Both the position numbers and the translations under genes were made by a program. Of a stretch of 64,000 bases of DNA, positions 1,637 to 54,371 are shown in pieces. How positions within the stretch are numbered: the stretch's first letter is position 1; each line of letters opens with the position of its first letter. Source of the DNA: Candidimonas sp. (GTDB lineage Bacteria > Pseudomonadota > Gammaproteobacteria > Burkholderiales > Burkholderiaceae_B); NCBI GenBank assembly GCA_004298545.1, contig SCQX01000172.1, positions 8,528-72,527 on the forward strand, given 5' to 3'. The notes under the pieces were generated by a model. That model saw nothing but the letters and a program-made list of their open reading frames with translations, was not told where the DNA came from and searched no databases.

Positions 1637-2422
1637 ATGACGCCAAACCCGCGACAGCAACACCTGCTGAGATACGTCCGGGAACGGCAGTCCTCGACGG
1701 TAGACGAACTGGCCACGAGGCTTGGCGTCACGGCGCAGACCATCCGCCGCGACGCGCGGCGGATGGCCGAGGCCGGCCTGCTGGCGCGCTTCCACGGCGG
1801 CGTCAGCGTACCGGGCTCGACCACCGAAAACCTGGCATACACGCAGCGCGAGAACCTGAACGCCGCCGGCAAGCGCCGCATCGCCGACGTGGTGGCGCGC
1901 GCCGTTCCCAATGGCTGCTCGCTGTTCATCAACATCGGCACGACGACCGAGGCGATCGCCCGCGCGCTCATGCGGCACACGGGGCTGCGCGTCATCACTA
2001 ACGACCTCAATGTGGCGGTGACGCTCAGTCGCAACCACGGCTGCGAGGTCATCGTCGCCGGCGGCGTCGTGCGCCCACGCGATGGCGGCATCATCGGCGA
2101 GGCAACCATTGATTTCATCCGCCAATTCAAGGTGGATATTGCGCTCATCGGCATTTCAAGCATCGAGGCCGATGGATCGCTGCGCGATTACGATTACCGG
2201 GAAGTGAAGGTGTCGCAGGCCATCATCGCGCACGCCCGCGAGGTCTGGCTGGCCGCCGACATGACCAAATTCAACCGCCAGGCCATGGTCAAAGTAGTGG
2301 ACATTGCGCAGATCGACCGGCTATTCACCGACGCCGCCCCGCCCAGCCCTTTCCCGCAACTCCTGGCCCAGGCGAACGTGCATTGCGAGATCGCCGCGGG
2401 CTCCAAAACCGAACCGACCTGA
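1637..2422 (+). CDS. glpR: DeoR-family glycerol-3-phosphate regulon repressor
   Basis: ORF track 1517..2422 trimmed to ATG 1637. DeoR w[39 protein letters not shown] plus a DeoR C-terminal sensor domain. Ends 8 nt before glpK. Confidence 0.85.
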
Positions 2423-2430
2423 AAACCGCC

Positions 2431-3927
2431 ATGGCCTACCTGCTTGCCTTCGACCAGGGCACATCGAGCTCGCGCAGCATCATCTTCGACGCGGATACGG
2501 GTACGATAGCCGCCATCGCGCAGCGAGAGTTCACGCAGCGCTACCCCCAGCCCGGCTGGGTGGAACACGACCCCATGGAAATCTGGTCGACCCAGCTGCA
2601 GACCGCGCGCGACGCCATCGCCCGCGCGGGCATCACGGCGGCCGACATCCTGGCGGCGGGCATCACCAACCAGCGCGAAACCACGATCGTCTGGCACCGG
2701 CGCAGCGGCAAACCCGTGCACAACGCCATTGTCTGGCAAGATCGCCGCTCGGAACCCATCTGTGCCGACCTGCGCCGACTAGGGCTGGAACCCCTCATTC
2801 AAGAGAAGACCGGGCTGCGCATCGACGCCTACTTCTCCGCGACCAAGCTCAAGTGGATACTGGACAATGTGCCCGAAGCCAGGCGCCTGGCCGAGCGGGG
2901 AGAGCTTGCCTTCGGCACGGTCGACTCCTGGCTGCTGTGGCAACTCACGCGGGGGCATATCCACGCCACCGACGTCACCAACGCGGCGCGCACCATGCTT
3001 TTCGACATTCGCGCCAACCAGTGGGACCCCGAGCTGTTGCGCGCGCTCGATATCCCCACAGCGCTCCTGCCTATGGTGCGCCCGTCCAGCGCGGACTTCG
3101 GCGCCATCCACCCCGACTTGCTGGGAGGCCCGATCGCCATCCGCGGCGTAGCCGGCGACCAGCAGAGCGCCCTCTTCGGCCAGGCCTGTTTTCGCGAAGG
3201 CATGGCCAAAAATACCTATGGCACCGGCTGCTTCACACTGATGCACACGGGATCGAAGTTCCAGGAATCGCGCAACGGCCTGCTGACCACCAGCGCGGCC
3301 CAGGTCGACGCGCACCCCGAGTACGCCATCGAAGGCAGTGTGTTCGTCGGCGGCGCGGTCGTTCAGTGGCTGCGCGACGGCCTGCATGCCATAACCCACA
3401 GCGGGGACGTGGAAAAGCTGGCGAAAACCGTTCCGGATTCGGGCGGCGTCATGGTCGTGCCCGCATTCACGGGCCTGGGGGCGCCCTACTGGCAACCGGA
3501 CGCGCGCGGATCGATCACCGGCCTGACGCGTGGAACCAATATTGCCCACATCGCGCGCGCCGCGCTCGACAGCATCGCCTACCAGAGCGCCGCGCTGCTG
3601 CAGGCCATGAGCCGCGACGCCATTGCCGCGGGCGCCGCGCCGCTGGCCGAACTGCGCGTCGACGGCGGCGCCTGCGCCAACGACCTCCTGATGCAGTTCC
3701 AGGCCGATCTCCTGGGTATTCCGGTGGTGCGCCCCACGATCATAGAAACCACCGCTCTGGGCGCAGCGTACCTGGCGGGGCTCGCGTGCGGCGCATTCGC
3801 CAGCAAGGAAGCGCTGAGCGAACTCTGGCGCGTCGACCGCCGGTTCACGCCGCAAATGGACCGGAAGGAAGCGGCGGTCCTGATGGAGCGCTGGGAGCAC
3901 GCCGTGCGGCAGACTTGTTCGCAGTGA
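2431..3927 (+). CDS. glpK: glycerol kinase
   Basis: ORF track 2383..3927 trimmed to ATG 2431. FGGY kinase motifs [60 protein letters not shown]. Confidence 0.95.
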
Positions 3928-5114: not shown

Positions 5115-5379
5115 CTTGAATTTGACACTATATTGACTTGACGAGCCGACCTACCATCACATACATGTCGCTGTCCTACTACTGCTACTAGAAGATAGAG
5201 AGTCATTTCTGACCGTGAGAAGCAAGATATAGGTACAAACCCTATTTTGTCTATTTGGCAAGTACATACTACTATCATCCGATGGGGCGCCAGAGCCGCA
5301 CACGGCAAGTAGTAGTGCGGTGCGGGGCCGGTCGGCACCCCAGCAATCGATCACACACGCACAAACAAGGAGTCGCATC

Positions 5380-5790
5380 ATGGGAAAAGCATCATCGTCG
5401 TTTACTGAGCGTCTACACGGAAACGAAGAACCTACCAAGGGGGGGTCGGTTTACATCAAACCCAACGATATCCCGTGGAAGCCTTCGCAATTCGAGGGGA
5501 TTGACGTAAAAGTGCTTTACGAAAACAAAGAGGCAGGTGAGTTGACCTGCCTACTCCGCTGGGCGCCGGGCGCTACGTTGCCCTTTCACAAACATCCTGA
5601 GATCGAACAGACTTGGGTCCTGGAAGGGTCATTTTCCGACCATGACGGCATATGCCGCGCTGGCGAGTATGTCTATCGCATTCCGGGATCCCTGCACGAA
5701 ACTTATAGCGCTGAAGGTTGTGTGATCCTCGCGATCTATCGGAAACCAAATATTTTCGCGAACAGTGCCGGGTACGACGGCGCGAAGTAG
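5380..5790 (+). CDS. cupin-domain protein (ChrR-like cupin)
   Basis: ORF track 5320..5790 trimmed to ATG 5380 behind AAGGAG. Cupin motifs LPFHKHPEIEQTWVLEGSF ... GEYVYRIPGSLHE. Confidence 0.7.
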   Translation: MGKASSSFTERLHGNEEPTKGGSVYIKPNDIPWKPSQFEGIDVKVLYENKEAGELTCLLRWAPGATLPFHKHPEIEQTWVLEGSFSDHDGICRAGEYVYRIPGSLHETYSAEGCVILAIYRKPNIFANSAGYDGAK

Positions 5791-5886
5791 TCTCAGCAAG
5801 TAGTCCAACGTGAGACCTCAATCACTGTCACTGGCAGCACCGACCGCGTCACTCGGCAATGGGAACAGGAACAAGGCTGGGATGCA

Positions 5887-6960
5887 ATGAGCAAGAGCTA
5901 TCGAATTCTTATTTTGGGGGCTTCGTACGGGTCGCTGCTGGGTACGAAGCTGGCGTTGGCGGGGCATTCGGTGGACCTGGTGTGTCTGCCGGCCGAAGCT
6001 GAGCTGATCAATCGCGAGGGTGCGGTGATCCGCACGCCGGTCAAGGGGCGCGAGGGCCTGGTGGAGATACGCTCCAAGGGGCTGCCCGGCAAGCTGGGCG
6101 CGCTGGGGCCGGCGCAAGCCGATCCGGGCAGCTACGACCTGGTGGCGCTGGCGATGCAGGAGCCGCAGTACGGTTCGGCGGGCGTGCGCGAACTGATGGC
6201 ACGGGTGGCGAGCGCGCGGGTGCCGTGCATGTCGATCATGAACATGCCGCCGCTCACGTACCTGAAGCGCCTGCCGGAGGTGGACGTGGCGGCGTGCCGC
6301 GCGAGCTACACCGAGCCCACGGTGTGGGATGCGTTCGATCCGGCGCTCATGACGCTGTGCAGTCCCGATCCGCAGGCGTTTCGTCCGCCCCAGGAGAAGG
6401 TCAACGTGCTGCAGGTGCGCCTGCCGACGAACTTCAAGGCGGCGCGCTTCGCCTCGGACGCGCACACGCAGATCCTGCGCGATCTGGAAGCCTCGGTGAT
6501 GGCGGTGCGCTTCGCCGTCGGCGGCGAGAGAATCGAACTGCCGGTGAAGCTGCACGTGCACGAGTCGGTGTTCGTGCCGCTGGCGAAGTGGAGCATGCTC
6601 ATGGCGGGCAACTACCGCTGCGTGACCGCTGCGGGCATCCGCAGCATCCGCGACGCGGTGCATACCGATCTTGCCGCCTCGCGCTCGATCTACGAGTGGG
6701 TGGTAGCGCTGTGCGAGAAGATGGGGGCGGCGCCCGCCGACATGGTGCCGTTCGAGAAGTACGCCAACGCGGCGCTCTCGCTGGTGACGCCGTCCTCGGC
6801 GGCGCGCACGCTGTACGCGGGCGCGGCGCACATCGAGCGCGACGACCTGCTGGTGCAGACCATCGGCGCGCAGCACGGCATGCACAACGCTGTGCTCGAC
6901 GAAGTGGTGCGCCTGGTCGAAGCGCAGCTCGCGCTCAACCGCAAGGACAAGGAACCATAG
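5887..6960 (+). CDS. NAD(P)-binding Rossmann-fold oxidoreductase (ketopantoate-reductase-like; function uncertain)
   Basis: 357-aa ORF with N-terminal dinucleotide fold RILILGASYGSLLGTKLALAGHSVDLV. About 70% GC (hand count of line 6001), flanked by 45-52% GC sequence. The antisense 355-aa ORF is Arg-rich junk. Confidence 0.65.
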   Translation: MSKSYRILILGASYGSLLGTKLALAGHSVDLVCLPAEAELINREGAVIRTPVKGREGLVEIRSKGLPGKLGALGPAQADPGSYDLVALAMQEPQYGSAGVRELMARVASARVPCMSIMNMPPLTYLKRLPEVDVAACRASYTEPTVWDAFDPALMTLCSPDPQAFRPPQEKVNVLQVRLPTNFKAARFASDAHTQILRDLEASVMAVRFAVGGERIELPVKLHVHESVFVPLAKWSMLMAGNYRCVTAAGIRSIRDAVHTDLAASRSIYEWVVALCEKMGAAPADMVPFEKYANAALSLVTPSSAARTLYAGAAHIERDDLLVQTIGAQHGMHNAVLDEVVRLVEAQLALNRKDKEP

Positions 6961-19374: not shown

Positions 19375-19401
19375 TTTACGGCAGGGCTGAAGAAAACATT
19401 A
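19375..19401 (-). promoter_or_regulatory. sigma-28 (FliA) type promoter of fliC
   Basis: Minus strand reads TAAT-N15-GCCGTAAACCGG (enteric consensus TAAA-N15-GCCGATAA). The -10 lies ~84 nt upstream of the fliC ATG. Confidence 0.7.
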
Positions 19402-19454: not shown

Positions 19455-20237
19455 TCAAAGGGCGTCTTTATAGTCGGCAAGCGCGGATTTGCCCGACGAA
19501 GTAGCGGTGGCGGCCCTCAGCCGCAACACCGCCTGGGTGCGCAGCTGTGACACGCGCGCCGACCCAACGCCCAACACTTGCGCGATTTCAATATTGCTCA
19601 TGTCCTGCTCGTAGGTCAGCGAGAGCACGAGCCGCTCTCTTTCGGGAAGCTTCTCCACGGCGCGCGCCAGCGCTTCGCGCAAACGCTTGCGCACGAGGCT
19701 CCTGGCGGGATCGGCCTCTTGGTCGACACCCTCCACCGGACCGCCGCGCAGATCGTCTTCGTCGCGGCGCAGATCTTCCGAATGCAGGATTTGTATGCCG
19801 GCCACGTCCGACAGCGTCCGACGATATTGCTCCGTGCTCACGCCCAGTGTATCTGCCACTTCGGCCTCCGTGGGCGCGCGCCCCAGACGCTGTTCGGTGG
19901 CGTGTATGGCCGCCTGCGTTTTGCGCGCGCGCTCGCGAACGGTCCGCGGCATCCAATCCTGCCGCCTGAGGTCGTCGAGCATGGCGCCCTGCACGCGCGC
20001 CGTCGCATAGGTGGAGAACTGAACGGTGGGCGGAGTCTCTACGTAACGTCTGGCGCACTCGAGCAGGCCCATCATCCCCGAGGCAATCAGATCGTCGAGT
20101 TCGATATTCGCCGGCAAACGCGAAACCATGCGCGTAGCGATGTGGCGCACCATCGGCGCATACTGCCCGATCAGGGCATCGACCTCAGAGGAGCGGCGCG
20201 ATCGTTTCATTGCGGCTGGCACTGTCATGCCAAGCAT
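19455..20237 (-). CDS. fliA: flagellar sigma factor sigma-28
   Basis: ORF track trimmed to ATG 20237 (or 20228). Region 2 DDLIASGMMGLLECARRY. Region 4 HTH LTYEQDMSNIEIAQVLGVGSARVSQLRTQAVLRLR. Confidence 0.9.
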   Translation of the reverse strand: MLGMTVPAAMKRSRRSSEVDALIGQYAPMVRHIATRMVSRLPANIELDDLIASGMMGLLECARRYVETPPTVQFSTYATARVQGAMLDDLRRQDWMPRTVRERARKTQAAIHATEQRLGRAPTEAEVADTLGVSTEQYRRTLSDVAGIQILHSEDLRRDEDDLRGGPVEGVDQEADPARSLVRKRLREALARAVEKLPERERLVLSLTYEQDMSNIEIAQVLGVGSARVSQLRTQAVLRLRAATATSSGKSALADYKDAL

Positions 20238-20336
20238 TATTGGAGAAGTTCCGCTTCGGAGAGCGAACGAGAAGCGGCGTAAACATCCTGCTGTTTTCAA
20301 ATTTGAACATTCACGCGGCCGGGCGCGTAAGGCGAC

Positions 20337-20363
20337 TAACAACTTTCACGAGTTCGCCGTAAA
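20337..20363 (+). promoter_or_regulatory. sigma-28 type promoter of fliDST
   Basis: TAAC-N15-GCCGTAAACCCGG on the plus strand, ~175 nt upstream of the fliD ATG. Confidence 0.65.
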
Positions 20364-20537: not shown

Positions 20538-21956
20538 ATGACTACCGCTTTGACCACCCCGACATCGATAGGCACCTCCGGCAGCATCAGCTTTCTCGGA
20601 TCCGGTTCCGGGCTGCCGCTGAGTTCCCTCCTCAACCAGCTCAGAACCAACGCGAGCCAGGGTCTGGTACTGCTGCAAAGCCAGGAATCCAGCGTACAGT
20701 CGACGATCTCCGCCTACGGGCAGCTGCAAAGCGCGCTGGGTGCCCTCTCGACGGCGGCCCAGGCGCTTTCCCCCACCCAGGCGCTGGGCCAACTGGCCGC
20801 GAGCGTGACCGGATCGGATTTCACCGCCACGGTGCAGAGCCAGACCAACCCTGGTCAGCCGCCGGCCGTGGCCGGCACCTACTCCGTGCAGGTCAACGCG
20901 CTGGCGCGCGCACAAACGCTCGTCTCCACCGGCCAAGCGAGCAGCACGGCACAGATCGGCAGCGGCGGCGTCATCACTTTCACGCTGGGCAACGGGCAGA
21001 CCGAAACACTCGACATGACTGGCGGCGACACCTCGGTGCAGGGGCTCATGCAGGCGATCAATTCGAATTCCTCCCTGGGGCTGCAGGCGACGATGCTCAA
21101 CGACGGCAGCGCCACTCCGTACCGCCTGATGATCTCGCCCACGCAATCCGGCACACAGGCGGCCGTTACGAACATCAGCGTCAGCGGCAACAGCACGCTC
21201 GGCAGCTTCCTGTCGCTGGGCTCGATGACCCAGCAGGCGGCAAGCGACGCGCAACTGTCCGTCAACGGCGTGGCGGTGACGAGTGCAAGCAACACGGTCT
21301 CGAGCGTCATCCCGGGAGTGACGCTCACCCTTGGCGCGGCAAGCGGCACGACGCAGACCATGACGATATCGCAGGATACCAATGCGGCCTCGACGGCTAT
21401 AAACGCCTTTGTCAGCGCATACAACACCCTGCAGACGACAATCTCCAGCCTGACCGCCTTCAATTCCACGACCGAACAAGGCAGCGTGCTCACTGGGGAC
21501 TCGGTCACTCGCAATGTCCAGACCAGCCTTTCCGGCATTATGAATTTTTCGTCCATTGACGAAAGCGCTTTCCCCACCCTGGGCTCCATCGGCATCCTCT
21601 CCAATACCGACGGCACTATTTCCGTCAACCAGAGCCAACTCACCGCCGCGCTGCAAGCCAATCCCCAAGCGGTGTCGCAGCTTTTCGACGGCCCCAACGG
21701 CCTGTCGAACTTCACGACCAACTTGATCAACAACTTCACCGATACCAATGGTTCGCTCTCGACCGTCGTTAGCGGTGCCAATGCGCGGCTGGCCTCGCTG
21801 CAACAACAATACACGAACCAGTCCAGCCTGATCGACGCGCAGATGGCAACGCTACAGAATCAATTCGTCCAGCTTGACGCCCTAGTGGCGACAATGAACA
21901 ACACGAGCAGCTATCTCACCCAGCAATTTGCCGCACTCTCCAAGTCGGGGGGCTAG
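20538..21956 (+). CDS. fliD: flagellar filament cap protein
   Basis: 472 aa. N-terminal QSTISAYGQLQSALGAL and a C-terminal coiled region ...LQNQFVQLDALVATMNNTSSYLTQQF. Position is divergent from fliA-fliC and upstream of fliS. Confidence 0.9.
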   Translation: MTTALTTPTSIGTSGSISFLGSGSGLPLSSLLNQLRTNASQGLVLLQSQESSVQSTISAYGQLQSALGALSTAAQALSPTQALGQLAASVTGSDFTATVQSQTNPGQPPAVAGTYSVQVNALARAQTLVSTGQASSTAQIGSGGVITFTLGNGQTETLDMTGGDTSVQGLMQAINSNSSLGLQATMLNDGSATPYRLMISPTQSGTQAAVTNISVSGNSTLGSFLSLGSMTQQAASDAQLSVNGVAVTSASNTVSSVIPGVTLTLGAASGTTQTMTISQDTNAASTAINAFVSAYNTLQTTISSLTAFNSTTEQGSVLTGDSVTRNVQTSLSGIMNFSSIDESAFPTLGSIGILSNTDGTISVNQSQLTAALQANPQAVSQLFDGPNGLSNFTTNLINNFTDTNGSLSTVVSGANARLASLQQQYTNQSSLIDAQMATLQNQFVQLDALVATMNNTSSYLTQQFAALSKSGG

Positions 21957-21958
21957 CC

Positions 21959-22366
21959 ATGACCCCATCCACCCACTCCGGTGCTGGCGGCAGGCACGCC
22001 GCCGCCTATGCGCGCGTCGGATTGCAGACTCGCGTGGGCAGCGCCAGTCCGACGCAGTTGATCGCCCTGCTGCTTGCCGGCGCGCGCACCGACATCACGC
22101 GCGCCAGCCTCTACTTCTCGCAGGGTAATGTTGCCGCCCGAGGCCGCGCCATCACACATGCCCTGACGATTGTGCGCAATGGACTGATCGCCGCCATTGA
22201 CGAACAACAGGGGTCCGTCGCCGCGCAGTTGCGCCACACCTACGAGCTCATCTGCTACTTGCTGCTGCAGGCCAACGCGCGCCGCGATCCGGCGATGCTG
22301 GAGCGGGCGGGCGACATGCTCAGAGACGTCGAACTCGCGTGGAGCGAGGCGACTGACGGAAAGTAG
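21959..22366 (+). CDS. fliS: flagellin export chaperone
   Basis: 135 aa with LIALLLAGARTDITRASLYF...AITHALTIVRNGLIAAID. Starts 2 nt after fliD. Confidence 0.9.
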   Translation: MTPSTHSGAGGRHAAAYARVGLQTRVGSASPTQLIALLLAGARTDITRASLYFSQGNVAARGRAITHALTIVRNGLIAAIDEQQGSVAAQLRHTYELICYLLLQANARRDPAMLERAGDMLRDVELAWSEATDGK

Positions 22367-22395
22367 GGCGAGAAGGAACAAGGAAAGAGGCTGCG

Positions 22396-22791
22396 ATGCC
22401 ATCGACGACGACGGAAGGCGGTTCCCGGGATGGGGCGAGCACGGATCTGATCAATCAGTACCGCAACGTGCTCGCCTGCGTGCAGACAATGCGCGCCCGC
22501 GCACTCGAGCAAGACTGGGGAGCGGTGATGCGAGCGGGCATACGCTACGAGCAAAGTGTGATGGTCTTGCGCAACCATCCGGGGTACGATCAACTTGGCG
22601 AGGCGGAGAACCTGGAGCGACGAGCGCTTCTGGGCGATATTCTTTCATGCGACCGGGCGGTGCGCGATCTGGTCCTGCCCGCGCAGGCAAGGGTCGGACA
22701 GTTGATCAGCGGCCTCGCGCGGCAAAAAAAATTGCTGCGCAGCTACGGCGCGAATGGATCGGTTACGCTCGGCCGCGCACCCGGCACCTGA
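22396..22791 (+). CDS. fliT: FliT-like flagellar chaperone
   Basis: 131-aa helical protein immediately after fliS. The assignment is by position and size with weak sequence resemblance. Confidence 0.6.
   Translation: MPSTTTEGGSRDGASTDLINQYRNVLACVQTMRARALEQDWGAVMRAGIRYEQSVMVLRNHPGYDQLGEAENLERRALLGDILSCDRAVRDLVLPAQARVGQLISGLARQKKLLRSYGANGSVTLGRAPGT
22724..22731. repeat. A8 homopolymer inside the fliT 3' end
   Basis: CAA AAA AAA TTG read directly. It is the longest A/T run I noticed in the GC-rich part of the window. Confidence 0.9.
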
Positions 22792-22810
22792 CCACCAAGA
22801 GGTGGGAGAC

Positions 22811-24220
22811 GTGAAAAACACTGGCATCGATGTCCTGCTCACGCAGCGCGTGGAAACGGCGCTTGGCGTCTTACTCGGCCAAGCGCGCGACATGCGCGTG
22901 CGTTCAACGGCGCGCGATGTTTCAGAACCCGGTGACGTCCCCCGCACCGACGAAACCCACTCCGCCTCGGGCCGCGCGGGCGACACCGAGCGCGCCCTCG
23001 CGGATGTGAGGGCCGGCGGCCCCGCCCAGACTCAGGCACGCAGCGCGGGTTCCACGCTCGTCGCCCGCTCGGGCCGCGACCCGGCCGGACCCGCGGGGCG
23101 CGAATTTATCCCCGCGGGCGCGGTGGACGCCGACGCGGAGCTGTCGGTACAGGTGCATTTGACCCCGGACGGTGCGGCTCTCGCGCGCGCCAGCGCGGCG
23201 ACCGCAAGCATCGGTCGCGCAGCCGCGCAACCGCCCGCGGAAATCCGCACGGACACCCCGGCGAGCGCTCCCGCGGCGCTACTGGCCGATGAAGCCGGGC
23301 GCGCGCGACAGGCCGTCGCCCCGCTGCTGGACGGGCGCAATCCGGCACTGGCGACACTGGCGCGCTCGCAAGACATTCCACAGCCCGTGCGCGACGTCCT
23401 GATCCTCTTGGTGGATGCGATGTTGAGCAGCGGCCTGTTTCAAACGAGCCTTCTTGCCGACGCTCATGCCGGCAGACTCGCTTATGAAAAGCTATCGTCG
23501 TACTTGTCCGCCGCCACCGCCGCGAATCGCCAGGACGGACGGACGGATTCCGCTGCGAACCGCCCGATACCCGGCGCCGGCGTACAAGATCTCCAGCCCG
23601 GAACTGGATCCGCTAGTAGCGCCGACACCGCGCTGCCCGCCGCCGGAAACGCGAGCGGGCGGCCCGCGAGCGGAACATCGACAAGCGTACAAACGGTATC
23701 GCAAGTCGCCGCTCAGACGGGCGCGGAAACAGGCACGCAGGCGCCGCAGGTCCTTCCGGGCGGAACCCCGGGAGCGGCGCTGGAGGCGCTCTACAGCCAG
23801 TCCATGACCTTTCAGATACCGCTCTTCCCGGGAGCGCCCCCGGCAACGTTGGTGTTCGCACGCCAGGAAAAACCGAAAGATGGCGCAAGCAACGACGGCG
23901 CGAACCATGCGGCGCCACGCAATCAGGCGCCACGCGGCGCCTCCGGCTGGCACTGCACGCTTGAGATCGATCTGCCGCGCCTTGGCCCCATACAGGCCGC
24001 GTTTTCAGCCGATCACAACGACGTGTCGGTCGACATCCGCGCCGCGCGCGAGCCCACGATGCTCACTCTGCAAGTCGCACTGGCCCACGGCGCCCTGAAG
24101 TCGGATAGAGCCGTTCGGGTGACTAGCGTCTCGCGCTGGGAATGGGCGCCGCGGCCGGTTCCGATGGGGGACGGCGAAAGCGGCGCGACCAACGCGGGCT
24201 CCGCGCCACGGGAAACGTGA
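22811..24220 (+). CDS. FliK-like protein (Ala/Pro/Gly-rich, C-terminal Flg_hook-like segment)
   Basis: The track ORF 22754..24220 overlaps fliT. GTG 22811 behind GGTGGGAG is the likelier start. The C-terminal LEIDLPRLGPIQAAFSADHNDVSVDIRAAREPTMLTLQVAL parallels the FliK hook-length-control domain. Confidence 0.7.
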   Translation: MKNTGIDVLLTQRVETALGVLLGQARDMRVRSTARDVSEPGDVPRTDETHSASGRAGDTERALADVRAGGPAQTQARSAGSTLVARSGRDPAGPAGREFIPAGAVDADAELSVQVHLTPDGAALARASAATASIGRAAAQPPAEIRTDTPASAPAALLADEAGRARQAVAPLLDGRNPALATLARSQDIPQPVRDVLILLVDAMLSSGLFQTSLLADAHAGRLAYEKLSSYLSAATAANRQDGRTDSAANRPIPGAGVQDLQPGTGSASSADTALPAAGNASGRPASGTSTSVQTVSQVAAQTGAETGTQAPQVLPGGTPGAALEALYSQSMTFQIPLFPGAPPATLVFARQEKPKDGASNDGANHAAPRNQAPRGASGWHCTLEIDLPRLGPIQAAFSADHNDVSVDIRAAREPTMLTLQVALAHGALKSDRAVRVTSVSRWEWAPRPVPMGDGESGATNAGSAPRET

Positions 24221-24225
24221 TCGCC

Positions 24226-24549
24226 ATGGCGCGCGCGACCGACAAACCCGGATCCGGGGCCGACCCAGCGCGCCGACTCCGCGATTCAACGCGCGCCGTG
24301 GCGTTGCGCTACGAACCCCAGTGGCACGCTCCCAGGGTCGTCGCGAAAGGGTACGGCCACATCGGTCAGTCCATCATCGACACCGCGCGCGAGCACGGGG
24401 TGGCGGTGACCGAGTCACCGCAACTCGTGGAGCTGCTCATGGGGCTCGACCTGGACCGCGAGATCCCGCAGTGCCTGTACCGCGCGGTCGCCGAGGTCCT
24501 CGCCTGGGTGTTGAAGCTCGATAGCGCCGGCCCGCGCGGGGAGTCGTGA
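24226..24549 (+). CDS. soluble FlhB C-terminal-domain-like protein (EscU/YscU/HrcU family fragment paralog)
   Basis: Track ORF trimmed to ATG 24226. AVALRYEPQWHAPRVVAKGYGHIGQSIIDTAREHGVAVTESPQLVELL...IPQCLYRAVAEVLAWVLKL aligns by eye to the post-NPTH part of the FlhB in this window. It has no TM segments and no NPTH. Confidence 0.75.
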   Translation: MARATDKPGSGADPARRLRDSTRAVALRYEPQWHAPRVVAKGYGHIGQSIIDTAREHGVAVTESPQLVELLMGLDLDREIPQCLYRAVAEVLAWVLKLDSAGPRGES

Positions 24550-24572
24550 ACCCGGCAGCGCGCTCTCGCCAT

Positions 24573-24914
24573 TCAGATCGGCATGCTGCTGATCGTCTCA
24601 TAGGCCGCCGTGATCTTGTTGCGCACCTGCAGGAGCGTCTGAAAGCCAATGTTGGCCTTCTGAAGGTCGATCATCACGCGCTCGAGCGGCAGGCCCGACT
24701 GCCCCGCCGAGAACGCCTGAGTCTCGGCATACGCCTGGTTCTGCGCGCCGGCTACATCCCGAATCGCCTGGGCAAGCACCGTCGTGAAGCTTCCAGCGGG
24801 AGTTGCCGCAGCTGATGATGCGCCCGGCGGCGCATCAGGTGCTACCACGGCGGCGGCCTTGCGCGCCAGCGCATTCATTTGTGCCAGCGGCACCGCGTCG
24901 GAAATGGGAATCAT
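24573..24914 (-). CDS. fliE: flagellar hook-basal body complex protein
   Basis: Trimmed to ATG 24914. C-terminal GQSGLPLERVMIDLQKANIGFQTLLQVRNKITAAYETISSMPI. Confidence 0.9.
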   Translation of the reverse strand: MIPISDAVPLAQMNALARKAAAVVAPDAPPGASSAAATPAGSFTTVLAQAIRDVAGAQNQAYAETQAFSAGQSGLPLERVMIDLQKANIGFQTLLQVRNKITAAYETISSMPI

Positions 24915-25253
24915 CGCAATCGCGCACACTTGAAGGAGGGGACGCGGATACTGTAATGACAGTTTGCAAGCGGCGAGCGGCGAAGCAGCGGGAGGAATCG
25001 GCGCCACTTCTCCGTTTCACGCCCGAAAGCGGAAAAAGGGGTGGAAAGACCGGTCAGCTCTCTACATGGCCTCGCGTGGGGCTCGCCGATAATGGCCTCA
25101 CGTCAAGGGACCCGCAGTGCGCCTGGTATTTCCTCGCCACGCGGGCCGTAGATTCTTTTTCGCCGAAGAACCGAAAGTCCGCATGCGCGCTTCGTTGGTC
25201 CCGTTTTCCATTCACACTGCCCCCAAGATCGCGCCGGTGGCGGAAATCCTCCA

Positions 25254-26921
25254 ATGAATGCCTGGCTGCAACCTCTGCGCGACCGCCTACCGCTGCAAAC
25301 ACTGGCCCGCGTGCCGCGCCTCGCGTGGCTCGGGGCGGCGGCAGGCCTCATCGCGGTCATCGCGGTCGCCTTCCTGTGGGCGCGCGGCCCAGGCTATGCG
25401 GTGCTCTACTCGAACCTGAGCGACAGCGACGGCGGCCCCGTCGTGGCGGCACTGGACAAGATGAACGTACCCTACAAGTTCGCACAGCAAGGCGGCGCGC
25501 TGCTGGTGCCGGCCGACGAGGTCAGGCGCACACGTATGCTGCTGGCCGCGCAAGGCCTGCCGAAAAACGGCAATGTCGGGTTCGATCTGGTCGAGAAACC
25601 CGGGTTCGGAGCGAGCGACTTCACCGAACGGGCAATCTACCAACACGCATTGGAGGGCGAGATCGCAAACACGATCGAAGCAATCAACGTCGTGTCGCAT
25701 GCGACTGTTCATCTGGCCCTACCCCCCCAAACACTCTTCGTACGGGAGCGCAAACAGCCCTCGGCGTCAATCCTCGTGAACCTGCGGCCGGGGCGAACGC
25801 TCGATGACGGCCAGGTCGCGGCAATCAAATGGCTGGTCGCCTCGGCCGTGCCCGAACTCGCGGCCGACCGCGTCTCCATCGTCGACCAGTACGGACATTT
25901 GCTTTCCTCTCCGGATGCAGGCGACGGCTCCCAGCTCGACGCGAGCCATCTCAGCTACGAGCGGCGCGTGGAGGCGCAGGTCGCCGAACGCATCCAAGGC
26001 ATCCTCGCGCCCATGCTGGGGGCGGGCAATGTGCATGCCCAAGTCAGCGCACAGCTGGATTTCTCGCGGATCGAGGACACCTCCGAAACCTATGGGCCAA
26101 ACGGCCGCCCGGACCAGACCGCGATCCGCAGCAAACAGACGCACGACACGACTCGGGTCGGCGCGCTGCCGGCCCAGGGGATACCGGGGGCGCTATCGAA
26201 CCAGCCACCCGCGACCGCCACCGCCAATATCGTCAATCCGCCCCAGGCCCCGGCCGGGAACCAGGCAACGGCGCCGGGCCAGACCCCGGGAAGAGGCCCC
26301 CAGAGACCGCAAGAACCGCAAGACAATTCCCAATCGTCAACTGTCAACTACGAACTCGATCACCGCATCACCCACACACAGGCACCCGTCGGAAGTATCA
26401 AACGCCTGTCGGTCGCCGTCGTCGTCAACGATCAGCCAAACGCCAAGGGCGTGCCCGAGCCGCTGAGCACGACACAAATGGCCCAGGTCATGGAGCTGGT
26501 CAAGCAGGCGATGGGCTATTCCTCCACACGGGGCGACACGGTCAATGTCGTCAACACACGCTTTCGCGCACAACCGACAGTTTCCTGGTGGCAAGATCCG
26601 TACTGGATCGGAATGGCGCGCTCGACCGGCCTGGACCTGCTGGGGTTGCTCGTACTCTGGTTTGCCTGGCGCAGGGGATTGCGCCCACTGCTACTGGCGT
26701 GGGGACAGGCGCGCAGCCAGACTGCGAGACAAGGTGAACCCAGTGTAACCGTGGCGGCCGCTGAACCGGCGGGCGGCAGCTCGGGCAGCCTCAAACCGGC
26801 GGACAGCTACGAAGGTGATCTCAGCGCGGCGCGCGGAATCGCGGGCAAAGACCCCAGGGCGATGGCGATGGTTATGCGTGCCTGGATGCAACGCAAAGCA
26901 AGGGGGCCGGACGATGATTGA
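25254..26921 (+). CDS. fliF: flagellar MS-ring protein
   Basis: 555 aa with YSNLSDSDGGPVVAALDKMNVPYKF and LALPPQTLFVRERKQPSASILVNL. Divergent from fliE. Confidence 0.95.
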   Translation: MNAWLQPLRDRLPLQTLARVPRLAWLGAAAGLIAVIAVAFLWARGPGYAVLYSNLSDSDGGPVVAALDKMNVPYKFAQQGGALLVPADEVRRTRMLLAAQGLPKNGNVGFDLVEKPGFGASDFTERAIYQHALEGEIANTIEAINVVSHATVHLALPPQTLFVRERKQPSASILVNLRPGRTLDDGQVAAIKWLVASAVPELAADRVSIVDQYGHLLSSPDAGDGSQLDASHLSYERRVEAQVAERIQGILAPMLGAGNVHAQVSAQLDFSRIEDTSETYGPNGRPDQTAIRSKQTHDTTRVGALPAQGIPGALSNQPPATATANIVNPPQAPAGNQATAPGQTPGRGPQRPQEPQDNSQSSTVNYELDHRITHTQAPVGSIKRLSVAVVVNDQPNAKGVPEPLSTTQMAQVMELVKQAMGYSSTRGDTVNVVNTRFRAQPTVSWWQDPYWIGMARSTGLDLLGLLVLWFAWRRGLRPLLLAWGQARSQTARQGEPSVTVAAAEPAGGSSGSLKPADSYEGDLSAARGIAGKDPRAMAMVMRAWMQRKARGPDDD

Positions 26922-30580: not shown

Positions 30581-32164
30581 ATGGCAAGCGTCAAGGCGAT
30601 CATCCTGCAGCAAAGCGGTGGAACGGTGAATGCGACCGCCTCCCCCACACGCACCGCCGGCCCTTCGAACAACGGAACATTCACCCAAGCGCTCTCGCAG
30701 GCGACTCACGGCCATGACGAGGGTGACGCGCCCGGCGGTGGCGGCGCTCCAGGTAGTGGCGGCGCTCCGGGTAATGGCGACGTCCGGGGCAGCGGCACCA
30801 ACGCGGCCCGGGTCGCCAGCGGCACCGACACCACTCGGGGCACCATCGGGGCGCCGGGCGCATCCGGCACCGCCGCGGCCAACCTCGGGAACGGCGCGAT
30901 CGAGGATCCACCAAGCTCAACGGCGGCCGTCCGCGCGGGTATTGCCGTGGACGGGAGCATAGCCGCGAATGGGGGCGCGGCCGCAGGCGGGATCGTGGCA
31001 GCGGATAGAGGCGCGGCCGTGGATGGGGACGCGACGGCGGGGAAGTCCAAGGACAGGACGCGGGGCGGCGAGGGAAAAGACGCCGCTGGAACGGGATCGT
31101 CCCCATTACCGGAAACCATGGTGGGTCCGCTCGCTGGCCTGGTGCAAGCCACGGTAATCGCGCGCGCGCCCACGGGCGGCCAGTCACCGGCGCAACCCGC
31201 CGGCATGCAACTTCCCGCGGCAAGCGGTGGCGCATCACTGTCTGACAGCGCTGGGGGAATCTCGCAAACCGGGGCAATCACACTGGCCGCTACTCCAGCC
31301 GCCGCATTCATGGCAACGGCCACGGCGGCGCCCCCGACGACACCGAAAGCAGCTGGGGATTCGCCCGCATCCCGAGCCCTCACGTCCGCCGCGGAAACGC
31401 TCGATGCCGGAGCCCTCACTGCCGAGCGCGGCCCGACGGGATCGCTTGCCGGCGCGCAAGTCCTCTATGTGCGCGGCCAATCGCAGCCGGACTCGCAACA
31501 GCCCGGCGGGCAAGCCCAACCCACCGGCGCGCAGGTACTGACGCAACACTTCCTCGACGAGCTGAATCGCGCCCGTGGGCTTCTCGATGCGGACAAAGAC
31601 GCGTCGCCGGGATCGGCACAATCGCCGACCGCCACCGCACAAGCCCCCCTGCGGTTTGCCGCCGCCACCATCCAGTCTCCGGTGGGCTCCGCAAGTTTCG
31701 GCCAGGATCTCGTCCACGACATCGCACGACTCGTCACCGCCAACCTGCCGTCGGGCACGAGCACCGTGCAAATGAATCTGAACCCCCCGAACCTCGGCCC
31801 ACTGCAGGTCACGGTGAGCGTCGCGGCCGGCGTTGCCCAAGTCTCTTTCGCCAGCGGACACGAAGCGGTGCGCGAGGCGGTATCGGCGAACCTTGCGGCG
31901 CTGCAGCAGGCACTCGCCCAACAGGGAATCTCTCTGGGCCAGACACAGGTGGGGAGTCAGGGCGGCCAGGCGGCCTATTCACCTCAATCGCAGGCTTTTT
32001 TCGAACGGAGATCGGGCAGCGGATCGGGCGGCAGCCGCGACGCGAATGGGCACGGACCGACCGGGATCGGCGGCGCGCGCGCCGCCGCGCTTCCCCCCGC
32101 GCACGAGGTAATCGCCGGCACCCACGCCCCCGACCCTTCGCGGCTGGTCGACACGAAGGCGTGA
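30581..32164 (+). CDS. fliK: flagellar hook-length control protein
   Basis: 527-aa Ala/Gly/Pro-rich protein. C-terminal NLNPPNLGPLQVTVSVAAGVAQVSFASGHEAVREAVSANLAALQQALAQQGISLG (Flg_hook domain). Sits between fliJ and fliL. Confidence 0.85.
   Translation: MASVKAIILQQSGGTVNATASPTRTAGPSNNGTFTQALSQATHGHDEGDAPGGGGAPGSGGAPGNGDVRGSGTNAARVASGTDTTRGTIGAPGASGTAAANLGNGAIEDPPSSTAAVRAGIAVDGSIAANGGAAAGGIVAADRGAAVDGDATAGKSKDRTRGGEGKDAAGTGSSPLPETMVGPLAGLVQATVIARAPTGGQSPAQPAGMQLPAASGGASLSDSAGGISQTGAITLAATPAAAFMATATAAPPTTPKAAGDSPASRALTSAAETLDAGALTAERGPTGSLAGAQVLYVRGQSQPDSQQPGGQAQPTGAQVLTQHFLDELNRARGLLDADKDASPGSAQSPTATAQAPLRFAAATIQSPVGSASFGQDLVHDIARLVTANLPSGTSTVQMNLNPPNLGPLQVTVSVAAGVAQVSFASGHEAVREAVSANLAALQQALAQQGISLGQTQVGSQGGQAAYSPQSQAFFERRSGSGSGGSRDANGHGPTGIGGARAAALPPAHEVIAGTHAPDPSRLVDTKA
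30740..30775. repeat. 18-bp tandem duplication in fliK
   Basis: GGCGGCGCTCCAGGTAGT / GGCGGCGCTCCGGGTAAT, encoding GGAPGS-GGAPGN. Confidence 0.8.
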
Positions 32165-40216: not shown

Positions 40217-40243
40217 TTTACGGCAAAAAATCACAATGCTTGA
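40217..40243 (-). promoter_or_regulatory. sigma-28 type promoter of flgKL (overlaps flgJ stop)
   Basis: Minus strand reads TCAA-N15-GCCGTAAACAGG. The -10 lies 39 nt upstream of the flgK ATG. Confidence 0.55.
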
Positions 40244-48997: not shown

Positions 48998-49024
48998 TAA
49001 AGCTTGCGTGAATTTCGCCGTAAA
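48998..49024 (+). promoter_or_regulatory. sigma-28 type promoter of flgMN
   Basis: TAAA-N15-GCCGTAAACCCGG on the plus strand, 59 nt upstream of the flgM ATG. This is the best match of the four. Confidence 0.75.
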
Positions 49025-49898: not shown

Positions 49899-52025
49899 CT
49901 ACAGTTTATCGGTCGCGCTGATCGAAGTCGTGATGCGGATGATGCGTTCATCCGGAATCTCACTGATAGCCATCACCGCGAGCTCGGGCAGAGTGGCGCG
50001 GAAGAACCGCGACAATGGCTCGCGTAGCAACGGGCTCGTCAGCAGCACCGGGGGATCGCCCCGCTGCGTATGACGCTCGAGCGCCTGGCGGGTTCTCTCC
50101 AGCACCTTTTGCGCCAACATCGGTTCCAGCGACCCGTTGGAGGTCATCGCCGTGGTGAGGACGCGTTCGAGCTCCGTTTCAAGCCCGAGCGCAAGGCATT
50201 CTCTGGACTCGCCAAAAAATTGTTGTGTAATCGCCCGCGCCAGACCCATGCGTACCCGAGCCAGAAGGTCTCCCACTGGAAATGGCGTGCCCGCGGCCAC
50301 GGCCGAAGTCTGCAACCTCGGCCCCCACTCGAGCAGTATCTCCACGAGCGAGCGCATATCGCGAATCGGGATGCCCTCGGCCAGCAATCCGCGCAGCACG
50401 AACAACAGGGAAGATTGGCTGACGGCCTTGGGCACGAGGTCGTCGGTGAGCTTGGGTGATTCCTGTTCGGTGCGCTCCATGAGCCGATTCAACTCCAGGC
50501 GCCCGAACAAGTCGGCGGCATGTCGGTGGATCAGGTGGTCGAGATGCGTGGCGATGACGGTGCCGGCGTCCACGACGGTATAGCCCGCAACCTGGGCGAG
50601 TTCGCGCGAGCCGGTTTCGATCCAGACCGTGGGCAGGCCGAACGTCGGATCGGTTCCGGCGCGGCCGTTCAGAGGCGTGGTTACGTCGCCCGGATCGATT
50701 GCCATGAGCAGCCCAGGCCATATCTCGCCACGCCCGACCTCCACGCCGTAGAGCAATACCCGATACGTGTTCGGATCGAGCTCCAGATTGTCGCGAATGT
50801 GCACCACGGGCGGCAAAAATCCCATATTCTGCGCGAAAGCCTTGCGCAATGCCCGCACTCTTCCAACCAGTTCGGCCCCTTTTTCGGGGGCGACCATCGC
50901 CACCAGACGAAAGCCGATTTCAAGCGCGAGCGGGTCGACAAGCGTGACGTCCTTCCATGACGCTTCGCTGGCCTGAGAGACGGCGGCGCTTCTTCCCGCC
51001 TCGGCACTGGCGCGCGCCTCCTTCGCTGCCTCGCGTCGATGGATGGTGACGGCGCTGACGGCAAGCATCGTCGCCAGCGTGAGAAATGCGAAGTGGGGCA
51101 TGTCCGGGATCAGCCCCATCAACAGCAAAATGGCCGCCGTGATGAATTGCGGCAGCGGGTTGGAGAATAATTGGCCGACGAGCTGCTGGCCGACATCTTG
51201 ATCGGTGGCAACACGCGAAACAATAACACCCGCCGCCGTGGAGACAATCAACGAAGGAATCTGGCCGACGAGCCCGTCGCCGATGGTGAGCAACGTATAG
51301 TCGGTGGCCGCGTCCGAAAGATCCATGCCATGCTGCAACACACCGACCAGCAGGCCGCCGACGATGCATACCGCCATGATGATGAGCCCGGCGATCGCGT
51401 CGCCGCGCACGAACTTGCTTGCGCCATCCATGGATCCATAGAATTCGGCCTCCTGGGCAACCTCGGCGCGGCGTTTGCGCGCCTGGTCCTCGGTAACCAG
51501 CCCGGCGTTCAAATCCGCGTCGATCGCCATTTGTTTGCCGGGCATGGCATCGAGCGTGAAGCGCGCCCCGACCTCGGCAATGCGCCCGGCGCCCTTCGTG
51601 ATGACCACGAAATTGATCAGTACGAGGATGAGAAACACGACGATGCCGACGGCAAAGTTTCCGCCCACCAGGAAATGCCCGAAGGCCTCGATGACGCGCC
51701 CGGCCGCGCCGGGGCCGGTGTGCCCGTTCATCAGCACGACACGGGCCGAAGCCACGTTCAGCGACAGGCGCAGCAGCGTGGCGAAAAGCAGCACCGACGG
51801 AAAGGCGGCGAAATCGAGCGCCCGGTGCGTGAACATCGCCACGAGCAGAATCATGATCGCCATGGCGATGTTGAAGGTGAACAGCAGATCCAGCACCACC
51901 GGCGGCAGCGGCAGCACCATCATGGCGAGCACCATGAGGATGAGTATCGGCCCCGCGAGGATGCGCGGTTGCGCCGCGATGGTCGAACGCAGGAACGAGA
52001 GGGCGCTGTTGGGCGGAGGCGTCAT
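49899..52025 (-). CDS. flhA: flagellar export gate protein
   Basis: 708 aa with FPSVLLFATLLRLSLNVASARVVL and GASKFVRGDAIAGLII. Confidence 0.95.
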   Translation of the reverse strand: MTPPPNSALSFLRSTIAAQPRILAGPILILMVLAMMVLPLPPVVLDLLFTFNIAMAIMILLVAMFTHRALDFAAFPSVLLFATLLRLSLNVASARVVLMNGHTGPGAAGRVIEAFGHFLVGGNFAVGIVVFLILVLINFVVITKGAGRIAEVGARFTLDAMPGKQMAIDADLNAGLVTEDQARKRRAEVAQEAEFYGSMDGASKFVRGDAIAGLIIMAVCIVGGLLVGVLQHGMDLSDAATDYTLLTIGDGLVGQIPSLIVSTAAGVIVSRVATDQDVGQQLVGQLFSNPLPQFITAAILLLMGLIPDMPHFAFLTLATMLAVSAVTIHRREAAKEARASAEAGRSAAVSQASEASWKDVTLVDPLALEIGFRLVAMVAPEKGAELVGRVRALRKAFAQNMGFLPPVVHIRDNLELDPNTYRVLLYGVEVGRGEIWPGLLMAIDPGDVTTPLNGRAGTDPTFGLPTVWIETGSRELAQVAGYTVVDAGTVIATHLDHLIHRHAADLFGRLELNRLMERTEQESPKLTDDLVPKAVSQSSLLFVLRGLLAEGIPIRDMRSLVEILLEWGPRLQTSAVAAGTPFPVGDLLARVRMGLARAITQQFFGESRECLALGLETELERVLTTAMTSNGSLEPMLAQKVLERTRQALERHTQRGDPPVLLTSPLLREPLSRFFRATLPELAVMAISEIPDERIIRITTSISATDKL

Positions 52026-53191
52026 GACGGGACCGCGGCCGCATCGGCGCGCGCCGGGCCGGGATCGAACCCTAGCGGCACCGCCAGTGCCTCGGGTTCG
52101 GGGTTGTCGGGAGCGGCAGGTTCAAGCCCCGACTCCCAGCGGCGCAACTGGTAGACCCAGGCAAGTACGCGTGCCACCGCCGCAAAAAGCGCCTCCGGAA
52201 TGGTATCGCCCAGTTCAACGTGCGCATAGAGGGCGCGCGCCAATGGCGGCGCTTCGAGGACCGGAACGCGGTGCTGCGCGGCAAGTTCGCGGATTTTCAT
52301 CGCGACCGCGCCGCGCCCCTTCGCCACCAGGCGCGGCGCCGGCTGCCCGGGCGCGTAAACGAGCGCGACTGCAAAATGCGTGGGATTCGTCACTACAACG
52401 TTTGCCTTCGCCACTTCACTCATCATGCGATGACGCGCAATCTCACGCTGCTGCTGGCGGATACGCCCCTTCACATGGGGATCACCCTCGTTCTCCTTCA
52501 ACTCCCGGCGCACTTCGTCCTTGGTCATGCGAAGGCGTTTGGCGTAGGAGTGCGCCTGCCAGGGGGCGTCGAACAACGCAATGAGAACGATAGGCGCGCT
52601 CGCCGCAAGACAGCATGCGAGCGCAAGTGAAAGCGCATGGACGCTCGCCGGCACGAAGGCCTCGTTCGAGAGCGCCACCAGCTGCGGCAGCGCCCGCTTC
52701 AAGGCGAGATAGCCGAGCGCGCCGATGAGCACGGACTTGAGCAGCGTCTTGGCAAGTTCCGCGCCAGTTTGCGCGGAGAAAAAGCGCGCCGCGCCACTGA
52801 TCGGGTTCAGCCGCTCGGCCTTGGGCGCAAGCGCCGCCGGCGTGAACAGCCAGCCCCCGAGAGCAAGGGCGCCGACAACGCCGGCAACGGCCGCCGCGAT
52901 GAGCACCGGCGCGGCGGCCTCGACCGCCGCCACCGCGGCGACTCCCAGCACATGGAACATATGGCCGGGATCCGCCGCACTGGCCGCGTCGAACGTGAGT
53001 CCGTCGCGCATAACGCCTATCGTCTTCTCCCAGAGCAGCGAGGCGCTGGCCCACAACACGGCACCGCAGCCAAAAATGGCAAGACAGGTGCCAAGCTCGC
53101 GCGAACGCGGCACCTGTCCCTCGGAACGAGCCTTGTCCAGCCGCTGGTGCGAGGCGGGTTCGGTCTTCTCGACGTCACTGTTTTCGGCCAT
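52022..53191 (-). CDS. flhB: flagellar export switch protein
   Basis: Track ORF trimmed to ATG 53191. MAENSDVEKTEPASHQRLDKARSEGQVPRSRE and autocleavage site VVVTNPTHFAVAL. ATGA overlap with flhA. Confidence 0.95.
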   Translation of the reverse strand: MAENSDVEKTEPASHQRLDKARSEGQVPRSRELGTCLAIFGCGAVLWASASLLWEKTIGVMRDGLTFDAASAADPGHMFHVLGVAAVAAVEAAAPVLIAAAVAGVVGALALGGWLFTPAALAPKAERLNPISGAARFFSAQTGAELAKTLLKSVLIGALGYLALKRALPQLVALSNEAFVPASVHALSLALACCLAASAPIVLIALFDAPWQAHSYAKRLRMTKDEVRRELKENEGDPHVKGRIRQQQREIARHRMMSEVAKANVVVTNPTHFAVALVYAPGQPAPRLVAKGRGAVAMKIRELAAQHRVPVLEAPPLARALYAHVELGDTIPEALFAAVARVLAWVYQLRRWESGLEPAAPDNPEPEALAVPLGFDPGPARADAAAVPS

Positions 53192-54371
53192 GCCTGACTC
53201 GCGGTTTGCCCTTGCGAGAGGCCGCCCGGACCGGACGCGGCACGCTCGCCATGGCAGGAATATCAAACTGCGGTGCGCTGCTCCACAAGGTATCGACCGG
53301 CGCGTCGGCGAGCTGCCTGGCAGTGCGTATCCCGAGCGCTTCGACCGGCGCGGCACTGGGCGCGGCGCTGATCTTCCCCGCCGGAGGTGCCGCGGGCGGC
53401 TTCGCCTCCGGCGCGGCACCCTCGGGGGTGCTGTCGGGCTTCGCGCCGGTCGCCGCGGCCCCCGGCCTGGGAGCGCCGGCGCCTTGCGACTTTTCCCACT
53501 GCACGGAGGTCATGGCACCACCAGAATAGGTTTCGCGCAGCAGCCTATCGGCATCCTTGTTCAACACCACGATACTAATGCGCCGGTTGGCCGCGGCCAT
53601 CGGATCATCCTTGATGAGGTTCATGGTGTCGGCCAGGCCCAGGATGCGGCGCACTTTAGCATCATCGATACCGCCCGCGACGAGCGCCTGGCGCGCGGAG
53701 TTGGCCCGGTCGGCCGACAGCTCCCAATTGCTGTAGTGCTGCTCGCCGGTCACATACGGCTTTGCGTCGGTATGGCCGGCGATCGACAGGCCGTTCGGCA
53801 CGCCGTTGAGCGTGGGCGCAAGCGCGTGCAGAATGTCGACCATCGCCGGCGAGAGCGTCGCGCTGCCCAGCGCGAACATGGGTTTGTCCTGTTCATCGAG
53901 AATCTGGATGCGCAGCCCTTCCGGCGTCATGTCCAGCACCAGTTGGGGCCGATACTTTTTCAGCACTGGATTCGCCTCGATGAGCGCCTCGAGGCGCCGC
54001 TTCAAATCTTCCAGGCGCGCCTGGTCCTGCCGGGCGCCGGGGCTCCAGGAAGGATGCGTGATCGCATTGGGCGGCGCATCGGTCGGCGCGTGGTTCGGGA
54101 TGGCCGATGGGCTGCCGCCGGGGATCACGTTGTGCGGACTCGCGTCGGTGATCTTGCCTTCAAGCGCGGACATCAGCGGCGTGCGGAAATACTGCGCGAT
54201 GCCCTGTAGACTTTCCTTCGGCACCAGCAACAACAGCCACATCACCAGAAAGAATGCCATCATCGCCGTCATGAAGTCGGCATAGGCGATTTTCCAGCTG
54301 CCGCCATGCCCCTCCGCGTGGGCGCTCTTGGGGCGATGAATGACGATGCGAGGTTCTGGTTCGGCGGCCAT
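53175..54371 (-). CDS. motB: flagellar stator protein with extended Ala/Pro-rich C-terminal tail
   Basis: 398 aa with GSWKIAYADFMTAMMAFFLVMWLL (plug/TM with Asp). OmpA-like GHTDAKPY...NWELSADRANSARQALV...NRRISIVVL. About 115 aa of extra tail. Overlaps flhB by 17 nt. Confidence 0.9.
   Translation of the reverse strand: MAAEPEPRIVIHRPKSAHAEGHGGSWKIAYADFMTAMMAFFLVMWLLLLVPKESLQGIAQYFRTPLMSALEGKITDASPHNVIPGGSPSAIPNHAPTDAPPNAITHPSWSPGARQDQARLEDLKRRLEALIEANPVLKKYRPQLVLDMTPEGLRIQILDEQDKPMFALGSATLSPAMVDILHALAPTLNGVPNGLSIAGHTDAKPYVTGEQHYSNWELSADRANSARQALVAGGIDDAKVRRILGLADTMNLIKDDPMAAANRRISIVVLNKDADRLLRETYSGGAMTSVQWEKSQGAGAPRPGAAATGAKPDSTPEGAAPEAKPPAAPPAGKISAAPSAAPVEALGIRTARQLADAPVDTLWSSAPQFDIPAMASVPRPVRAASRKGKPRVRHGRKQ

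Follow-up and report, generated by a model that had tools for sequence, protein, structure and literature searches.

The stretch of DNA analyzed here, hereafter the window, comprises 64,000 nucleotides of a Candidimonas sp. assembly (GCA_004298545.1, contig SCQX01000172.1, positions 8,528 to 72,527), and it carries, at the end of a sigma-28-type fliD-fliS-fliT operon, two further genes that are almost certainly this organism's version of fliK2-flhX, a conserved pair of flagellar accessory genes. The operon lies on the forward strand and opens with the filament cap gene fliD (20538..21956; Pfam FliD_N and FliD_C), followed by fliS (21959..22366; Pfam FliS, 83.9 bits) and fliT (22396..22791; Pfam FliT, 51.5 bits). 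At a spacing of 19 nucleotides from fliT comes fliK2 (22811..24220), encoding a FliK paralogue of 469 amino acids in which a conserved block at the N-terminus is followed by a central SGLF motif and, at the C-terminus, by a T3S4 domain, and then flhX (24226..24549), encoding a soluble FlhB-CC paralogue of 107 amino acids that is identified by Pfam, TIGR00789, alignment to FlhB and its signature positions. The GTG start of fliK2 at 22811 has a strong Shine-Dalgarno sequence ahead of it (AGGTGGGAGA) and yields an N-terminus, MKNTGIDVLL, that lines up with those of two homologues; it is therefore preferred over a longer frame starting at ATG 22754. The gene stops with a TGA at 24218-24220, and flhX starts with an ATG at 24226, 5 nucleotides past this stop. 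An alternative, in-frame flhX start is the GTG at 24217, which would create a GTGA start/stop overlap with fliK2, and with either start the two genes are predicted to be translationally coupled. A search for an intrinsic terminator downstream of flhX found none.

The small protein had originally been proposed to correspond to the part of FlhB that lies C-terminal to the NPTH cleavage site, and this proposal is borne out. In the profile search, FlhX covers only positions 262-335 of the 335 positions in Pfam Bac_export_2 (68.7 bits, E 7e-19), shows 47% identity over 76 amino acids to the FlhB of the window C-terminal to NPTH (E 1e-16) and can be aligned to residues 274-350 of Salmonella FlhB (FlhB-CC, PDB 3B0Z; E 2e-11). 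As also proposed, it has neither a transmembrane segment nor the NPTH motif, with DSTR preceding AVALRY instead. The full-length flhB gene, complete with NPTH, is located elsewhere in the window (52022..53419, reverse strand; Bac_export_2, 393.8 bits), these coordinates being those of the longest open reading frame (ORF), in which the Pfam match begins at residue 84. Against NCBIfam TIGR00789 (flhB_rel), FlhX scores 87.3 bits and does not reach the curated cut-off of 117.35 bits. Since this cut-off is reached by 0 of 400 genomes from the class of the host, despite the short FlhX ORFs that most of these genomes carry, it is evidently tuned to other lineages, and is treated here as uninformative rather than as grounds for exclusion. 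The early-substrate docking pocket of FlhB-CCD (PMC9307174) persists in FlhX nearly unchanged. Among 161 FlhX sequences, A286 is found in 156, P287 in all 161 and A341 in 157, and the position of L344 is occupied by Leu in 134 and by Ile in 27. At the same time, the family displays a signature of its own, consisting of a one-residue deletion at Y323 (161/161) together with R338, I302 and E or Q at position 299, and the FlhX of the window bears the Y323 deletion, R338, I302 and Q299. The combination of a nearly invariant pocket with signature positions of its own suggests that FlhX is an ancient family maintained by selection, and that its pocket still has a binding partner.

In the case of the 469-residue protein, the original prediction described a FliK-type C-terminus on the basis of a by-eye match to the bona fide FliK of the window. 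The pairwise match did not stand, because BLASTP between the two proteins is not significant (E 0.21) and direct homology on these grounds was rejected, but the FliK-type assignment holds at the level of the family. A profile of 45 FliK2 family members detects Salmonella FliK-C (2RRL) with an E-value of 1.2e-6 and the T3S4 domain of the injectisome ruler PscP (5CUK) with an E-value of 1.6e-3. Furthermore, an AlphaFold2 model of the last 230 residues of FliK2 has a core with a predicted local distance difference test score (pLDDT) of ~90, and its top and only credible match in Foldseek is again 5CUK (prob 1.0, TM 0.54, E 5e-3). The Pfam Flg_hook profile does match the FliK2 of the window at residues 375-421 (22.7 bits, E 8.7e-5), but falls short of its 29.8 cut-off. 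Taken together, the family and structure evidence make a convincing case for a divergent FliK-type T3S4 (Flg_hook) domain at the C-terminus of FliK2, delimited by Pfam, the family profile, and AlphaFold2 with Foldseek at residues ~322-445 (23774..24145). Both products of the pair hence appear to be paralogues of the two export-switch partners, as was originally put forward.

Alignment of FliK2 with its nearest homologues, such as P0002 (34% identity over 95% of the length, E 7.7e-45), reveals three conserved blocks: the N-terminal block, a central block with the motif ...SG(L)F... and the T3S4 domain. A search for relatives of the window FliK2 among named genome contigs returned none. The central block, defined by alignment with the homologues, spans residues ~195-235 (VRDVLILLVDAMLSSGLFQTSLLADAHAGRLAYE; 23393..23515), and its motif, L..A(I/L)..SG(L)F(L/Y)E..L, is present in ~30 of the 45 family members. 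This SGLF-type motif is a candidate ligand for the hydrophobic pocket of FlhX. It is not claimed as a gate-recognition motif, given that it fits FxxxPhi in the subfamily of the window only and not in gamma-type proteins; no N-terminal FxxxPhi gate-recognition motif was found in FliK2, which has no Phe within its first ~105 residues. FliK2 is also distinct from the bona fide FliK ruler, to which it is additional in this genome. It is located after fliT and outside fliJKL, its Flg_hook match is weak, it does not have an end of the ...LVDTKA type, and similarity to the ruler region of FliK is not detectable in it. The bona fide fliK gene (30581..32164, forward strand; Flg_hook, 69.6 bits) lies between fliJ and fliL, and its product ends in ...LVDTKA.

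The pair is widely conserved. Of 400 genomes sampled from the host's class, 193 matched the FlhB-C model, and at least two such matches, mostly short FlhX-type frames, were seen in ~131 of the 192 matching genomes that remain when the host genome is excluded. At each of 40 FlhX loci taken from different families of the class, a same-strand ORF of about 350-700 amino acids ends between -39 and +73 nucleotides from the FlhX domain, and Flg_hook is matched by all 45 proteins found in the FliK2 position, the window's included. The co-occurrence anticipated for a functional pair is hence what was found: an Flg_hook ORF abuts flhX at 40/40 loci, and the same holds in 5/5 relatives of the host from the same genus, family, and order, each of which encodes one FlhB and one FlhX. 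These five relatives also keep the order fliD-fliS-(fliT)-fliK2-flhX-fliE(-)-fliF, as far as their contigs allow. In the window, fliE (24573..25007, reverse strand; Pfam FliE) is convergent with flhX across a 23-nucleotide gap, and fliF follows from position 25254 on the forward strand. The fliT-fliK2-flhX order is likewise seen in metagenome contigs and in the megaplasmid of Cupriavidus metallidurans CH34, and FlhX as a whole is represented by ~4400 representative clusters at E<=1e-3. Six loci with frames of 480-775 amino acids running through FlhX were considered as possible fusions and rejected as a high-GC artefact, the Flg_hook ORF being off-frame. One protein (P0129, 437 amino acids) joins two FlhB-C-like stretches to an SLT lytic transglycosylase domain, and constitutes an unusual FlhX fusion.

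The same assembly contains, on two further contigs (C14 and C247), a second and diverged fliD-fliS-fliT-fliK2-flhX-fliE(-)-fliF block, and it also encodes another FlhB and another FliK. Compared with the copy at 20538-26921 of the window, this block shows ~30% identity in FliK2, 57% in FlhX and 59% in FliF, and neither copy is close to the locus of the same-genus genome (FliF, ~47-53%). Either the organism has two flagellar systems, or the bin is a mixture (contamination 4.8%).

The transcriptional context of the pair can be read from the motif preceding fliD, a sigma-28-like promoter of the form TAACAACT-N11-GCCGTAAA (20337..20363, forward strand). The -10 octamer, GCCGTAAA, has four copies in the 64 kb, and every copy is upstream of a classical late operon: before fliC, the flagellin gene (19375-19382, reverse strand), before fliD (20356-20363, forward strand), before flgK (40217-40224, reverse strand) and before flgMN (49017-49024, forward strand). 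A TAAA-like box is found 11 nucleotides ahead of each of the four copies. The -35 element of the fliD promoter matches at just 4 of 8 positions. No exact GCCGTAAA was found between fliD and fliK2, so that fliK2-flhX would most simply be transcribed by read-through from the promoter of fliD. At the level of motifs, this evidence supports late, sigma-28-type transcription of the operon, in agreement with the earlier suggestions that fliD has a sigma-28 promoter and that the pair, placed after fliD-fliS-fliT and downstream of this motif, is expressed with the late genes. It thus seems that GCCGTAAA, and not the enterobacterial GCCGATAA, serves locally as the -10 element of sigma-28. A fliA-type sigma factor gene (19455-20342, reverse strand) is located between fliD and the flagellin gene, co-directional with the latter; its longest ORF encodes 295 amino acids and is probably overextended at its 5' end, since homologues have 229-243.

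The fliK2-flhX pair has already been named and is not new, and the window locus is one more, rather divergent example of it. In Pseudomonas putida, fliK2-flhX (PP_4328/PP_4329) has been described as a class IV operon to which no function is assigned, and the FliA-dependence of its transcription is experimental (10.1101/2021.08.29.457346; PMC5026340). The FlhX name was introduced by Pallen et al. in 2005, according to the preprint (10.1101/2021.08.29.457346). The pair of P. putida KT2440 resembles that of the window in that a protein bearing the C-terminal domain of FliK (Flg_hook/T3S4) is directly followed by an FlhB-CC-only protein in a late, FliA/sigma-28-type context. However, its two genes make up an operon by themselves, served by a dedicated FliA promoter, whereas the pair of the window is appended to fliD-fliS-fliT, and gamma-type FliK2 proteins have the motif W.VGQ at the N-terminus and a tail of the form CHQG...LLDxxA, neither of which is present in the window FliK2. 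The FlhX proteins of the Helicobacter pylori HP1575, TIGR00789 and Bacillus subtilis YlqH type are, like that of the window, stand-alone post-autocleavage segments of ~90-110 amino acids with no transmembrane segment. HP1575 has been described as a "spare part" substituting for deleted FlhB-CC (Wand 2006, as cited in 10.1101/2021.08.29.457346). The original statement that stand-alone FlhB-C-like proteins have no assigned mechanism was nearly right. In contrast to the context of flhX in the window, HP1575 has not been reported to be sigma-28-dependent or coupled to fliK2.

The same two folds are known from Salmonella FlhB-CCD and FliK-C (3B0Z, 2RRL), and the resemblance extends to individual positions: FlhX keeps A286, P287, G293, A341 and L344, and FliK2 retains the T3S4 core L-P-x-L-G-P. 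Unlike Salmonella FlhB-CCD, FlhX is at no stage embedded in a membrane protein and does not depend on autocleavage. Within the Burkholderiales, the CH34 megaplasmid and Oxalicibacterium-type contigs present a gene order after fliD-fliS-fliT that is identical to that of the window, but their FliK2 proteins (45 bits for CH34) score above the Pfam Flg_hook cut-off and that of the window below it. In Oxalobacteraceae-type loci, a PilZN-PilZ gene encoding a YcgR-like cyclic di-GMP receptor directly follows flhX (5334-6092 in locus L010; 5276-6049 in locus L014); the window does not have this gene, its place after flhX being taken by fliE. In a plasmid-labelled record of Bacillus velezensis (1816-3797), ylqG, annotated as a glycosyl transferase, overlaps the FlhB-like ylqH by 4 nucleotides; YlqG has no Pfam Flg_hook match and is weakly aligned, at its C-terminus, with the FliK2 family profile (hhalign, E 0.076, probability <1%). 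With respect to these systems, the new elements reported here are the conservation of the FlhX pocket, the missing tail of FliK2 in the Burkholderiales lineage and the link of the pair to the FlhB-CC ejection framework.

According to a 2026 mBio paper, FlhB-CCD holds the export gate in its early mode, and both the removal of the CCD and its degradation at hook completion, when the sigma-28 genes turn on, depend on FliK; in Salmonella, loss of the CCD abolishes early secretion (PMC13344023). Sigma-28 timing and FliK-dependent CCD removal imply that, in this organism, a T3S4 protein and a free paralogue of the CCD would be produced at the very moment when the native CCD vanishes. The decoy, lock or second-checkpoint role that was initially envisaged for the pair is hence plausible and would fit this ejection model. 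The mechanism that we prefer, tentatively, is one in which FlhX serves as a target mimic and the pair as a post-switch lock. The two components, a free, never membrane-anchored FlhB-CCD paralogue and a non-ruler with a T3S4 switch domain, would associate 1:1 in the cytoplasm, binding each other as FliK binds FlhB, with the T3S4-CCD interface in common. The constant 1:1 coupling of the genes suggests such mutual binding. As a target mimic, FlhX would mask the T3S4 domain of FliK2 in a chaperone-like manner, and this partnering may be likened to the substrate/chaperone pairs already present in the operon (FliD/FliT, and FliS for flagellin). The complex would be made only once hook completion frees sigma-28, with the native FlhB-CCD already ejected by FliK, and FliK2 would then work at the gate without length measurement, keeping it free of CCD and generating a robust late-export state. 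While gene identity, conservation, coupling, the promoter motif and pocket conservation are shown by the data above, we infer that a complex is formed, at what time this would happen in this organism and how the gate would be affected.

Several observations weigh against the post-switch lock. Neither the 40 loci nor the top 150 FlhX representatives yielded a natural FliK2-FlhX fusion. Furthermore, the C-terminal tail L-(L/V)-D-x-x-(A/V)-stop, common to the FliK of the window (32140-32161) and to gamma-type FliK2, is absent from the FliK2 of the window, which ends in ...SAPRET, and from other Burkholderiales-type FliK2 proteins. The switch-flipping step has been assigned to the last residues of FliK (Chevance et al.), and Burkholderiales-type FliK2 may therefore bind the CCD without ejecting it. 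Lastly, the conserved early-substrate pocket of FlhX fits a docking or a sponge role equally well, and FlhX of H. pylori is reportedly able to work at the gate itself.

This last property lends itself to a rather unlikely alternative, in which FlhX would be a spare part that docks non-covalently at the FlhB-CN/FlhA site vacated by FlhB-CCD. Early-substrate docking would thereby be restored and rod/hook-type export would resume, for repair or for a pulse of FliK2 export; FliK2 would then eject FlhX, and the switch would be resettable. The near-invariance of the early-substrate pocket and the loss of early secretion in Salmonella without the CCD both agree with such re-arming, as does the flagellar export that HP1575 allows when FlhB-CC is deleted (Wand 2006, via the citing preprint). 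Sigma-28 timing, however, would return the gate to early mode precisely when filament export is needed, there is no known evidence of a switched gate going back to early mode, and the FliK2 of the window is without the terminal tail that has been implicated in ejection. A related and distinctly unlikely proposal regards FlhX as a re-loadable, removable FlhB-CCD module and FliK2 as its length-independent ejector, with the FlhX pocket possibly docking the Phe of the SG(L)F motif in FliK2. The pocket might instead act in the cytoplasm: after the switch, FlhX would capture FliK and leftover rod/hook subunits by their gate-recognition motif and so prevent them from reaching the gate, and FliK2 would do no more than regulate or stabilize FlhX. 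Such a sponge would account for the conservation of the pocket in a late promoter context, but the dock of the early substrates is gone with the CCD anyway, which makes a sponge seem unnecessary, and the constant 1:1 coupling of a T3S4 protein to FlhX would be left unexplained; we regard it as highly doubtful.

The pair could also be thought of as decaying duplicates without function, in which a duplication left behind a fragment of flhB and a copy of fliK that has degenerated. The sub-threshold Flg_hook score of FliK2 and its non-significant pairwise match to FliK are in line with this notion, as is the fast evolution of the protein, which has 2 word-based matches in 5.8 billion proteins. Nevertheless, neither ORF is disrupted, the coupling between them is tight, conservation of the pair spans the whole class and extends beyond it, the FlhX family counts ~4400 representative clusters, and FlhX carries signature positions of its own family rather than being a recent copy of FlhB. 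Conservation effectively refutes decay, which we consider to have next to no chance of being correct. Whatever probability these explanations leave over belongs to something not yet imagined.

The window locus adds no new kind of system to the flagellar repertoire, but the pair it exemplifies is a common one: about two thirds of the class genomes that match FlhB-C carry a second match, mostly in short FlhX-type frames. To our knowledge, the model organisms E. coli and Salmonella are without FlhX, and this would explain why the pair has remained without a tested function. If FlhX were a re-loadable module, the export switch of the many bacteria carrying the pair would be resettable or buffered, and not strictly one-way as in E. 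coli and Salmonella. The pair, in which a T3S4 protein is coupled to a free paralogue of the CCD that is expressed late, would, moreover, provide a direct and testable probe of the mechanism by which FliK ejects FlhB-CCD.

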